Sequence record: PQ850623.1
DNA: 64,000 nt
DNA from: Escherichia phage RudolfBernhard_Bas96
Strand: one strand, 5' to 3'
Part shown: positions 21,678 through 36,395 of the stretch, one piece after another
How the letters are laid out: every line of letters starts with the position of its first letter
Numbering within the stretch: position 1 is the stretch's first letter
The notes under the pieces: model-generated
Told to the model about the DNA's origin: nothing
Seen by the model: the letters and a program-made list of their open reading frames with translations, nothing else
Databases searched by the model: none
Program-made: the position numbers and the translations under genes

Positions 21678-21738
21678 AACTGGCTTACTGTAGAGTAAGT
21701 TACCTATATACGATATAAGTTTGAACAGGAAACATGCT

Positions 21739-34082: not shown

Positions 34083-34326
34083 GTACTATTTACCCATAGC
34101 TGGGAGGCTTGTATGAACTTTATGAGTACCAGGTTCAGGTACGCTTAACTGGTGTGCTACTTGGATTGATAGTCCACTCATATCGCTCAGGCTAGGATTT
34201 AAGGAGTTCCTATTCTCCAGCGAAATTCCCGTCGAGGGGAATAACAATACATTAGCAGCCACTGGACTGTCTTACCAGTGTTGTCTTTAGAGTGCTATGC
34301 AATCAGGACTATGTTACTGCTGAATG

Positions 34327-34413
34327 GGTGTCCACTACTGGATTTGAACCAGTGACCCCAGACACCTTGTTCTCTCGAAGCTTTCCTGTGCTCTACCACT
34401 GAGCTAAGTGGAC
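34327..34413 (-). tRNA. tRNA-like gene; canonical acceptor, D and T arms but non-canonical expanded anticodon region; anticodon not assigned
   Basis: Minus-strand read: acceptor GTCCACT / AGTGGAC (7 bp), D-arm GCTC-AGTGGTA-GAGC, T-arm ACTGG-TTCAAAT-CCAGT, discriminator A; the 36 nt between D and T arms contain no 5-7-5 anticodon hairpin. Confidence 0.45.
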
Positions 34414-34912
34414 ATAATAGAATGAGCTGGGGCAGGATACCTACCCCATCCAACCAAGTTACTCTGTATCTGAAGAACTATATTAAGTAGTTCATTTTAC
34501 AGCAATAAGTAATTAGCTACTGCTTAACCAGGATGATTAGACGTGCTCATATTGGGTGAGTCATGCCAGGCTCTAACTGGCTCCTTCTTCGCAATCCTTA
34601 CATACCCCTACATAATTATTGCGTTAAGCTTTTTTGTTTAAGTTTAAGTGAAGGCGTTCTTGCTGACTCATAATTGGGTGGGCGTTTGACGAATGACTAG
34701 TTCGTTACTACCCGTTTGCCATAAGTACCTGGCGACTATGGTTTGAGATGGGAGTCCGAGTCCTGTACAGCCTTACCGTCTCCACATTGGCAGCGTATCT
34801 AGAATAGCACTTCCGGGTACGGATTTAACTGTTACATCTCAAATATGGTAGGGGCGTCCAGAGGTTTCATCTGGTACTTACGCCGTCGTATTTACGACTT
34901 ACCCCCATTGTT

Positions 34913-34990
34913 TGGTTGCAGGTGGAGGAGTTGAACCTCACTTCACATACAGATTGGGAAACCTGTAGCATAACCGTATGCTCACCCACA
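34913..34990 (-). tRNA. tRNA-like gene with encoded CCA; anticodon loop appears to be 8 nt (TTTCCCAA); possibly Gly-type; needs software confirmation
   Basis: Acceptor TGTGGGT / ACCTGCA (two G-U pairs), D-arm GCAT-ACGGTT-ATGC, T-arm TGAGG-TTCAACT-CCTCC, discriminator A + CCA; anticodon stem ACAGG / TCTGT leaves an 8-nt loop. Confidence 0.45.
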
Positions 34991-35033
34991 ATAATTCTTC
35001 CAATTCAGAGTAGCACTGTTGCAGTCGTCACTG

Positions 35034-35108
35034 CCCATAGGTGAGGACTCGAACCTCACAATACCGTATGGCTAACGTCGCTGAACCTTTTCGCGTTCTA
35101 TGCAGTGC
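35034..35108 (-). tRNA. tRNA-like element (T-arm TGAGG-TTCGAGT-CCTCA); full cloverleaf not resolved by hand
   Basis: Canonical T-arm signature (plus-strand GGACTCGAACC); acceptor pairing only partial (CATAG / CTATG). Confidence 0.3.
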
Positions 35109-35118
35109 TACTTTGAAT

Positions 35119-35200
35119 TGGTTACCAGTGAAGGATTCGAACCTCCGGTTGGAGTCTATAGCTTACCGCAGCAGCCCTCCAATCTAGCGGTGTCACACTT
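35119..35200 (-). tRNA. tRNA-like element with T-arm GGAGG-TTCGAAT-CCTTC and encoded CCA; 5' half not resolved
   Basis: Plus-strand GGATTCGAACC at 35133-35143; minus-strand 3' tail ...ACTGGTA-A-CCA; no matching 5' acceptor strand found by hand. Confidence 0.3.
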
Positions 35201-35244
35201 AGTCCAAACTTGAACATGCCAAGCCATCTCGTGCAACTGGTAAT

Positions 35245-35320
35245 TGGTTCCGGCGTCTGGACTCGAACCAGAACACTCATGCCGGGCACGACACTAGTAC
35301 CTACACCGGAATAGTTGCCA
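35245..35320 (-). tRNA. tRNA-like element with T-arm TCTGG-TTCGAGT-CCAGA, acceptor TCCGGTG / CGCCGGA and encoded CCA; D/anticodon region unusually short
   Basis: 7-bp acceptor pairing (one G-U) plus discriminator A + CCA; only ~31 nt between acceptor and T-stem, too short for canonical D and anticodon arms. Confidence 0.3.
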
Positions 35321-35371
35321 GGGATTCCACCTGGCTCTATCTGTTTTTATAGTCACTCAGATATTGTCTGG

Positions 35372-35450
35372 ACTTTGACCATCTGGGGATTCGAACCCTC
35401 ATCTCGGTGGCCAACCGTGCATTTGCCTCATGCTACTCTGGTCATAGTTG
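35372..35450 (-). tRNA. tRNA-like element (T-arm GGG-TTCGAAT-CCC); D-arm-like GCAT-GAGGCAA-ATGC present; boundaries uncertain
   Basis: Plus-strand GGGGATTCGAACCC at 35385-35398; D-arm-like hairpin on the minus-strand read; acceptor pairing incomplete. Confidence 0.3.
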
Positions 35451-36128
35451 GCCCCCGTTTCTAATACATGGACGGGGGAACTCCACGGTCGTTTGATAAT
35501 CAGGACGACTCACTCCTGACTGAGGTTACGCTGTTAGGCGACCATCAGATACGCTTCTTCGTTTGCATTTATGTTATTGGTTCGTTTCTAAAAAACCGCA
35601 TAATCGCTACGAAAACTATCGGAGAGTGTACTAACTCTGGGCCACGCTTTTGTGGACATCGGCCTACCTTCCACAGCTAATCAGCTAATACACTCACCGA
35701 TAGCCCGTAATAGGGGGGAGGGGACGAATCCTCCCTTTATACCCTATATTGCATGTAAGACCTAACAATTCGATGTTGTAGACGGATAGGCTTATGCTTA
35801 CCGGCATTAAACTCCCGCCCCCTTAGTGGGCTGGGTTAATTAGTATACTCAACATTGAGCAGTTAGTTTGATAAGGGATCTGAAGCCTTATCCCAAAGAT
35901 ACCAACCTTTGGGATATAGCCTAAGATTCAGAAATGGCCCCTATAGGAGAGGCCATTGATTAACCCGAATGTTGCTTTACATTTTCTGTGATAACCGGTT
36001 CTTAAAATAGTCTGTCTGACGGATGGGGGGCCACCCCTAGCGTCAGTGCCATACGGCAAAGATTAAGTTAAGAAAGGTTATGATAGGAGTTCCTATCTCA
36101 AAGGATTCTGACAGAACCCTTCACGATA

Positions 36129-36395
36129 TTAACTACTCTTTTTCAATGCTTCAACTTCGCCATCTTTATACCAAGCATATGGTATTAAGATTTTGCAGCC
36201 TTCTGAATCAATGTGGAATGCTTTGTTTACTTCAGCAGGTTCTCCACCCATGAAAGAACTAACCTTTCCATTGAGCCAGTGAATAGTAAATTTGTTCATA
36301 TTAACCCCGGTTGAACCAATGGACTGGGGAGAGTATTCCAATCCACTGGTTCGGTTGTTGTTATTCTGGCGGCTTGTCACCACCGTGTTTACCAC
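36129..36395 (-). CDS. Hypothetical protein
   Basis: 88-aa ORF; first minus-strand gene downstream of the RNA island. Confidence 0.35.
   Translation of the reverse strand: MVNTVVTSRQNNNNRTSGLEYSPQSIGSTGVNMNKFTIHWLNGKVSSFMGGEPAEVNKAFHIDSEGCKILIPYAWYKDGEVEALKKSS

Follow-up and report, generated by a model that had tools for sequence, protein, structure and literature searches.

What are phage genes that keep the acceptor, D- and T-arms of a tRNA when their anticodon regions are non-canonical? This question is raised by two minus-strand elements in a 64,000-nucleotide (nt) stretch of Escherichia phage RudolfBernhard_Bas96 (PQ850623.1), referred to below as the window: element 1 (34329..34413), in which a 30-nt arm replaces the anticodon arm, and element 2 (34913..34990), which has an 8-nt anticodon loop. 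A preliminary description based on hand folding had reported both anomalies and suggested that they could reflect escape from host anticodon nucleases, pseudo-tRNAs, small insertions or decoys; our analysis confirms the observation and partly supports the interpretation. By sequence comparison, element 1 belongs to a widespread, horizontally spread family of phage RNAs for which we found no published description, and we consider it very probable that it is a functional non-decoding RNA, neither a pseudogene nor a decoding tRNA. We put at about even the chances of our explanation as a whole, in which both elements are genuine tRNA-shaped genes that do not normally decode and the element 1 arm is a ligand or decoy for a host factor. 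The sequence places the phage among the N4-like viruses (genus Gamaleyavirus, Schitoviridae): a 3-kb query around the elements matched E20, KKP 3715, PhAPEC5/7, Bp4 and ~180 other records at 90-96% identity (BLAST), and an open reading frame (ORF) of 3,605 amino acids (aa) at 21721-32538 has the length of an N4-type virion RNA polymerase.

Results

The anticodon arm of element 1 is replaced by a 30-nt arm

The chassis of element 1 is that of a tRNA. Read on the minus strand, an acceptor stem of seven perfect base pairs (bp) (GTCCACT/AGTGGAC; 34413-34407 / 34336-34330), a GG-bearing D-arm (GCTC-AGTGGTA-GAGC; 34404-34390) and a T-arm with a UUCRANY loop (ACTGG-TTCAAAT-CCAGT; 34353-34337) are all present, as in a canonical tRNA, and are followed by a discriminator A (34329). 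The Rfam tRNA model (RF00005), whose gathering score is 29, gave the element 54.4 bits, far above chance (E=6e-9 in a search of the entire window); the threshold was passed only with the arm treated as a 24-nt insertion, the alignment placing 24 nt where the model has 11, an excess of 13 nt. Between the D- and T-arms lie 36 nt, made up of A26, the 30-nt arm (34359..34388; 17 nt is usual) and a 5-nt variable loop. The arm, CAGG-AAAGCUUCGAGAGAACAAGGUG-UCUG, consists of a 4-bp CAGG/TCTG stem closing 22 nt, and neither the sequence itself nor ARAGORN nor Rfam gave a 5-bp anticodon stem, a 7-nt loop, U33 or a three-base anticodon. These results bear out the fold drawn by hand in the preliminary description (7-bp acceptor, D-arm, T-arm and 36 nt between them with no 5-7-5 hairpin), in which the loop closed by the 4-bp stem had been put at about 20 nt; no ARAGORN mode, Rfam alignment or predicted fold turned either element into a canonical cloverleaf with a 7-nt loop, the outcome that the preliminary description had named as its refutation. 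ARAGORN found no tRNA across the whole window in its default mode and in its intron mode forced a call of 'Pro(agg)' with a 14-nt intron. A minus-strand ORF of 52 aa at window 34295-34453 overlaps the element.

The nearest canonical relative of element 1 is the tRNA-Arg(tct) of Serratia/Klebsiella phage KpSz_1 (L006 1504-1578), which is like it in acceptor (GTCC-CT), D-arm, the stem CAGG/CCUG and the variable loop, and whose T-arm, given as ACTGG-TTCGAAT-CCAGT, was called identical to that of element 1. Because the chassis is shared, that of element 1 is a tRNA-Arg(UCU) in which the loop has been replaced: the KpSz_1 gene has the 7-nt loop CUUCUAA, whereas element 1 has 22 nt and no anticodon. 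The two also differ at D-loop position 20, which is A in KpSz_1 and U in element 1, A20 being what we take to be an identity element for ArgRS. At the site of element 1, E20, PBM-3 and PhAPEC7 have a normal-length tRNA-Ile(aat) with a 7-nt loop and an identical acceptor and T-arm, and by this comparison only the D-arm and anticodon-arm part is exchanged between element 1 and its sister tRNA. In these sister phages the anticodon of this tRNA-Ile, AAU, is unusual, and its acceptor and T-arm are those of element 1.

The same arm occurs on two chassis

A BLAST search with a 101-nt element query matched the odd arm in ~138 Kuttervirus-type (Ackermannviridae) records, e.g. Vi01, Det7, SFP10 and PhaxI, as well as in the Gamaleyaviruses HK2 and pSb-1 and the 111-kb phage EP_H11. 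We define the family by an acceptor/D/T tRNA-like chassis that has CAGG-ANA-GYUUC-GNRA-GAAC-AAGGUR-YCUG at the position of the anticodon arm, a pattern that element 1 fits throughout (AAA, C, GAGA, AAGGUG, UCUG). Kuttervirus, N4-like phages, EP_H11 and other large-phage contigs carry the arm on the tRNA-Arg(UCU)-derived chassis, and in the matched records these genes are unannotated, labelled 'tRNA-OTHER' or, in Det7, described as 'pseudo tRNA undetermined specificity; contains a possible 15 bp intron'. The 'tRNA-OTHER' genes of Kuttervirus phages (SFP10, PhaxI, GG32 and others) and gene 194 of Det7, 91.5% identical to element 1 over the D-arm, arm and T-arm, are each the last gene of a tRNA cluster and, unlike element 1, have the acceptor TGCTTCA/TGAAGCA and a bulged U instead of C; the literature searched held no functional description of them.

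Pattern scans of IMG/VR revealed that this arm also sits on another tRNA-like chassis, unrelated to the first and here called the second chassis. It has the acceptor TGTGGTG/CACCACA or TTGGATG/CATCCAA, the D-arm GCGC-AGGCUGAU-GCGC, and a 5-bp 'T' stem with a 9-nt 'T-loop' from which the UUC elbow motif is missing. HK620 and related lambdoid prophages carry this form between the Q antiterminator and the holin, and of 5,426 complete E. coli genomes 99 (~2%) gave a full-length match. In HK620 itself (L233 972-1679) the gene is part of the late-promoter leader, with the annotated pR'/qut on one side and the late terminator on the other. The form is also present in Klebsiella siphophages such as ZCKP8, where tRNA-Arg(tct) and then tRNA-Met follow directly. 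In the Klebsiella phage Taipeivirus K751 (L232 1201-1299) the second chassis bears a different long arm, ACGUU-AAAUUGGACAAACCUUUCGCG-AACGU, rather than the GNRA arm, so that this chassis can carry alternative arms, of which there are two so far. Family members stand 2-8 nt from canonical tRNAs in Vi01, Det7, EP_H11, ZCKP8 and L195.

Searches for further relatives returned little. Half-pattern scans of IMG/VR for more divergent members gave just the known members and chance coding matches, a scan of GTDB with one genome per bacterial species gave three chance coding matches only, and a metagenome scan gave no new family variants. Among the 4,227 models of Rfam 15, nothing beyond tRNA-clan models reached meaningful scores for elements 1 and 2 (sub-threshold overlaps with Tymo_tRNA-like and Plastid-ycf2 are at chance level), and no family matched the HK620-type member at E<=1. 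The literature searched contained no description of the element 1 family; a preprint on the Pas small RNA (sRNA) and a paper on anti-sRNAs treat other prophage RNAs.

Several side observations concern family members and their surroundings. A further ~850 E. coli genomes match just the 5' acceptor and D-arm of the second chassis, followed in strain B1S11, the one example, by unrelated sequence. Upstream of an HK620-type member (L008 4214-4368) lies a motif resembling a type III hammerhead (30.5 bits where the gathering score is 48.5; E=2.6e-4), and a terminator-like hairpin is upstream of that member too. Short ORFs that overlap family members are labelled 'hypothetical protein' in pSb-1, ZCKP8 and SopranoGao, and in SP-9-14, where 34 nt match the arm module, an overlapping feature is labelled 'tRNA-Pro'; all of these are probably annotation artefacts.

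The arm, rather than the chassis, is the conserved unit

Base pairs were counted in 18 distinct sequences in a hand-segmented alignment, MAFFT having misaligned the 3' halves of the two chassis. Covariation extends to all seven acceptor pairs: each occurs as 3-4 pair types, and none of the 126 cells holds a non-pair. From one chassis to the other, compensatory switches affect one pair of the D-stem and two of the T-stem. The G-U pairs fit only the strand read here as RNA, which fixes the transcribed strand. Judged by these compensatory changes in the alignment, the stems of the chassis are maintained and the structure is under selection.

The arm barely changes. In element 1 its module is composed of the outer stem CAGG/UCUG, a 5' internal loop AAA, G-(C)-UUC, the tetraloop GAGA, GAA-C and a 3' internal loop AAGGUG; the module, with a purine-rich internal loop (ANA facing AAGGUG) and a tetraloop that varies within GNRA only, recurs in the 18 sequences on both chassis. 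With NN left free in the search pattern, the tetraloop was only ever GAGA, GGAA, GAAA or GGGA, all of the GNRA class; the 5' internal loop was AAA, AGA or AUA; and the 3' internal loop, its 3' side likewise left free, was AAGGUG in all sequences but one (AAGGUA). Among the sampled Kuttervirus genomes the 86-nt gene varies at one D-loop base only, in contrast to the variable bases directly 3' of the gene. What the family conserves as a unit is the arm and not the chassis.

Candidate identities for the insert and the arm were considered and rejected. Of the 18 ways to excise 13 nt, tried on the window, Vi01 and HK620-type variants, not one yields a 5-bp stem with U33 and R37, and a self-splicing intron could not fit into 13 nt, a group I core needing ~200 nt or more. 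No intron family was among the Rfam matches, and the bulge-helix-bulge motif was not explicitly searched for; the bulge-helix-bulge endonuclease is an archaeal and eukaryotic enzyme. A UUCG tetraloop within the arm suits the GGAA and GGGA variants only, its closing pair being C-A in 8 of the 18 sequences (GAGA, GAAA). UUC-GAGA-GAAC resembles what we take to be the 23S sequence UAC-GAGA-GGAC, and a mimic of the sarcin-ricin loop was rejected because the tetraloop varies to GGAA/GAAA/GGGA and the AGUA/GAA bulged-G motif is absent. Domain IV of the 4.5S RNA of the signal recognition particle, the kink-turn, 5S loop E, 16S 1499-1506 ('AACAAGGU'), the ATP aptamer loop and motifs of the CsrA or Shine-Dalgarno kind were compared in the forms that we presume for them; not one suits every variant, and such short matches as there are lie at chance level.

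Element 2 keeps an 8-nt loop of changing sequence

Element 2 is a tRNA-like gene too, but a rare and atypical one whose status is uncertain. Its acceptor, TGTGGGT/ACCTGCA, has seven pairs, two of them G-U, its D-arm is GCAT-ACGGTT-ATGC, and an anticodon stem, ACAGG/TCTGT, closes the 8-nt loop TTTCCCAA (UUUCCCAA as RNA; 34961-34954); the T-loop is TTCAACT (UUCAACU), the discriminator is A and CCA is encoded (34915-34913). The T-stem has either a U-C mismatch or only four pairs, position 8 is G and not U, and the variable region measures 8-9 nt. Rfam reported nothing for element 2 at gathering thresholds; its best match was tRNA-Sec at 31.7 bits (gathering score 47; E=0.0011 in 2.8 kb). ARAGORN called the element in mitochondrial mode only, with the four-base anticodon 'tccc'. 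A tRNA-Sec or allo-tRNA was rejected since, despite a possible 8/4 fold and 6-bp D-stem, there is no variable-arm helix and no UCA and the score falls short of the threshold, and descent from a phage tRNA-Gly(UCC) was rejected since global alignment gave no clear homology of the body.

Apart from the window phage, element 2 is carried by E20, NAN33P5 and Klebsiella phage K57alpha1.2, all Gamaleyaviruses (4 of ~180 related phages), so that no core gene can depend on it. In K57alpha1.2 the region is annotated as a 'tail spike protein' pseudogene, probably an annotation artefact. The 8-nt loop reported in the preliminary description recurs in all four carriers: in the three relatives it is CTTCCACA (CUUCCACA), closed by G-C, and in the window it is closed by G-U. 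Both variants amount to a Gly(UCC)-type YUUCCAA with one C added, which follows C36 in the window and A37 in the relatives; each therefore has the frameshift-suppressor trait of one extra anticodon-loop base, and the implied quadruplets disagree between homologues (UCCC vs UCCA). The loop and closing base (9 nt, 34953-34961) hold all four differences from K57alpha1.2 and NAN33P5 and four of the five from E20, against a background divergence of 3.1% over 693 nt around the element (Poisson estimate for the clustering ~2e-4). With substitutions clustered and the length kept at 8 nt, the loop is a hot spot, and its rapid change at constant length suggests selection on the loop itself. The pattern does not point to a particular factor. 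As for the element as a whole, we consider it an even question whether it is functional.

The elements lie in a mosaic island of tRNA-like RNAs

Both elements belong to a region of ~1.9 kb (34263-36130) without long minus-strand ORFs, and a strong intrinsic terminator (34081->34050) lies downstream of them. The ~500 nt that separate them (34414-34912, minus strand) hold no minus-strand ORF of at least 50 aa and no Rfam match. Comparison of window 34200-36200 with E20, PBM-3 and others shows the island to be a mosaic whose blocks (34414-34547, 34909-35098, 35252-35444 and 35445-35690) are each kept in some close relatives and gone in others; one junction falls within element 1, at 34357/34358, and 34548-34908 is 95-98% conserved in most relatives.

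Two further tRNA-like RNAs, designated X and Y, stand head to tail on the minus strand and were found by neither default ARAGORN nor Rfam. Y (125 nt, 35119..35243) has a 7-8 bp acceptor, the T-arm GGAGG-UUCGAAU-CCUUC and an encoded ACCA, and in its fold ~88 nt of extra hairpins take the place of the D- and anticodon arms; ARAGORN in relaxed mode took it for a 'Thr(ggt)' gene interrupted by an intron of 45 nt. Y also occurs in E20, PBM-3, PhAPEC7, K57alpha1.2 and NAN33P5 and is missing from the short pSb-1 locus (L012), and a tRNA-Thr, not mapped onto Y, is annotated in this region of some relatives. X (68 nt, 35245..35312) consists of the acceptor UCCGGUG/CGCCGGA, one hairpin, a T-arm and an encoded ACCA, a three-way junction one arm short (fold z = -2.3). 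On the same strand are a degenerate tRNA-like piece with the T-loop motif GAGGGUUCGAAUCCCC (~35378-35452), which by coordinate estimate is the 'tRNA-Cys' annotated in PBM-3, and an acceptor/T-arm minihelix without D- or anticodon arms, CCAUACGG...GUGAGGUUCGAGUCCUCAC...CUAUGG (~35030-35075). Besides their tRNA-Ile(aat), sister phages (E20, L001 1401-1473 and 1314-1392; PBM-3, L002 1405-1480) have a perfect cloverleaf that folds well (z = -3.3) and whose anticodon loop measures 6 nt; ARAGORN gives it as 'tRNA-??? (ac)'. Given these further non-canonical genes in the island and the 6-nt-loop cloverleaf in relatives, odd anticodon regions recur among the tRNA-like genes of the Gamaleyavirus group and are not two isolated accidents.

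The segment at 35487-35697 (minus strand) resembles a transfer-messenger RNA (tmRNA), matching the Rfam models tmRNA_permuted at 23.5 bits and beta_tmRNA at 16.7 bits, scores that fall short of the gathering scores. Its tmRNA-like tag template, AUAAAU-GCA AAC GAA GAA GCG UAU CUG AUG GUC GCC UAA, has a frame for ANEEAYLMVA*, where PBM-3 has ANDDVVLMAA*. The codons diverge and the frame is preserved: substitutions are concentrated in the tag, indels are absent, the stop is kept and the flanks are nearly identical. The long upstream helix shows a compensatory change from G-C to A-U. ARAGORN found no tmRNA in the segment, and no alanine-type (G3-U70) acceptor was identified.

Discussion

We propose that the element 1 gene would be transcribed together with its tRNA-like neighbours and that its acceptor/T-arm chassis would allow RNase P and the 3'-end/CCA machinery to excise a stable small RNA, which, lacking a 7-nt loop and U33, would read no codons. 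The invariant arm would be the working part of this RNA and may bind a factor found throughout the Enterobacteriaceae, common to Escherichia, Salmonella, Shigella and Klebsiella, that recognizes tRNA anticodon arms or the hairpin of the arm, so that, during conflict with the host or its takeover, the RNA would serve as a decoy or as a ligand that titrates the factor. For element 2 we propose a second RNA of tRNA-like form, much rarer and likewise non-decoding, processed like a tRNA and stable. Processing, stability and action as a ligand are steps that we infer. A decoy had been among the suggestions of the preliminary description, and for element 1 it is the best remaining fit; we nevertheless regard action on a host factor as possible rather than probable.

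Several points weigh against this proposal. The 3' end of element 1 is ACCC, not ACCA, with CCC following the discriminator. The arm is so conserved that its internal fold lacks compensatory support, and two inner folds are nearly iso-energetic: the GNRA hairpin UUC-GNRA-GAA is predicted to be stable in all variants, and RNAalifold and the energy calculations favour GCUU/AGGU, which fails in the Kuttervirus U variant, over that hairpin in most (C-bulge) variants. As the four tetraloops are connected by transitions alone, their restriction to GNRA is moderate evidence. Much of the spread of the family is through closely related genomes, and from the conserved arm to a ligand or decoy we proceed by inference only. 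Element 2, known from just four phages that are close relatives, does not reach the Rfam thresholds, shows a number of defects in its body and could be a decaying gene.

Decay of an ancestral N4-like tRNA cluster, with the odd loops as neutral damage, would account for the patchwork of presence and absence among close relatives, for the plainly degenerate pieces nearby (the minihelix and the poor T-stem at ~35378-35452), for a window in which ARAGORN finds no canonical tRNA, for the mismatched T-stem, G8 and odd variable region of an element 2 seen in four phages only, and for the annotation of the Det7 homologue of element 1 as a pseudo-tRNA. It does not account for an element 1 arm that stays near-invariant on two chassis and in several phage groups, for acceptors without a single non-pair in the cells counted, or for a Kuttervirus gene held near-constant next to variable 3' bases, nor would neutral decay be expected to leave element 2 at 8 nt through four loop changes with its body unchanged. 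We therefore consider this explanation improbable, and the near-invariant arm on two chassis and the compensatory stems contradict the earlier suggestion that element 1 is a pseudo-tRNA or an accidental insertion. Working tRNAs of a special kind, with element 2 a +1 frameshifting or nuclease-resistant tRNA-Gly(UCC) and element 1 a tRNA-Arg whose insert is removed or tolerated, are less probable still. Both variants of the element 2 loop are indeed YUUCCAA plus one C, one-base loop expansions of this sort are found in the classical suppressors sufD, sufA6 and sufB2, CCA is encoded in element 2, and the body of element 1 is of tRNA-Arg type, with G18G19 and UUCAAAU. However, no excision restores the anticodon arm of element 1, U33 is absent and 13 nt would not self-splice, the same arm is borne by a chassis whose 9-nt 'T-loop' has no UUC elbow motif, and the quadruplets of element 2, UCCC and UCCA, are inconsistent. 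The discriminator and first pairs of element 2 also mismatch what we take to be the glycine identity of E. coli.

The elements might instead be cis-acting processing signals, a form of tRNA punctuation in which cuts by RNase P and RNase Z mature or stabilize the flanking transcripts and the excised RNA has no job of its own. The head-to-tail packing with other CCA-ending tRNA-like folds would suit such signals, as would the position of the HK620 member in a late-promoter leader, where processing could matter. An acceptor and T-arm would suffice for this purpose, however, leaving unexplained a near-invariant 30-nt arm with conserved single-stranded loops and the conservation of the arm rather than the chassis, and we see only a slim chance that punctuation is all there is.

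Known systems resemble the elements in part. T4 offers the closest natural precedent: its RNA C and RNA D are stable RNAs that are not tRNAs but are encoded within a phage tRNA cluster, and their roles are still unknown (PMC3014915). Phage tRNAs that defeat tRNA-cleaving immunity, such as T5 tRNA-Lys against PARIS, tRNA-Tyr against Retron-Eco7 and variants with point changes in the anticodon loop, are described in three reports (PMC11464382, PMC11555353, PMC10264068). They are phage-borne and tRNA-shaped like elements 1 and 2, and their differences in the anticodon arm matter against host nucleases, but they are canonical, have 7-nt loops and replace the cleaved host tRNA, whereas our elements have no canonical anticodon loop. 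As the elements cannot decode, they would have to act as decoys or inhibitors, unlike these tRNAs, and our sequence-based results tie neither of them to PrrC, RloC or another named nuclease. Insertions, non-canonical or pseudo-tRNAs, loop size and decoys are not mentioned in one of the reports (PMC10264068). The +1 suppressors (sufD, sufA6, sufB2, sufJ) share with element 2 an 8-nt loop made by an extra base beside the anticodon, and differ from it in having a canonical chargeable body and a defined four-base reading, where element 2 has body defects and differing quadruplets. RNA C and RNA D are, we presume, longer than the elements and not cloverleaves with a replaced anticodon arm. Closest to element 1 in design are the engineered tRNA scaffolds of Ponchon and Dardel, in which a foreign structured RNA reportedly replaces the anticodon arm and the chassis provides processing and stability in E. 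coli; these are laboratory constructs, and the likeness lies in the replaced anticodon arm and in alternative arms on one chassis. We know of no natural phage counterpart that has been described.

Our findings show that a whole cluster of non-canonical tRNA-like genes can escape standard tRNA finders, and that genes of the element 1 family have been missed, labelled as intron-bearing pseudo-tRNAs or over-called as proteins or tRNA-Pro. As ~2% of complete E. coli genomes and the Kuttervirus candidates for biocontrol and therapy carry the family, it is easily testable. The 'anticodon arm' of element 1 is a structured module of fixed form that has passed from one chassis to another and from one phage family to another, and a conserved non-decoding RNA of tRNA shape, if borne out, would represent a strategy other than the decodable replacement of cleaved host tRNAs, the only role in which phage tRNA genes are so far known to count in the arms race with tRNA-cleaving defences. 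More speculatively, and with the odds in our view against it, enterobacterial phages may use natural tRNA scaffolds, host-matured chassis that display interchangeable arms as trans-acting inhibitors, with the GNRA arm neutralizing a tRNA-targeting immune nuclease or a translation factor that Escherichia, Salmonella, Shigella and Klebsiella have in common. If true, this would explain both the presence of the arm in lytic phages of several families and the placement of the HK620-type member in the pR' leader upstream of the late terminator.

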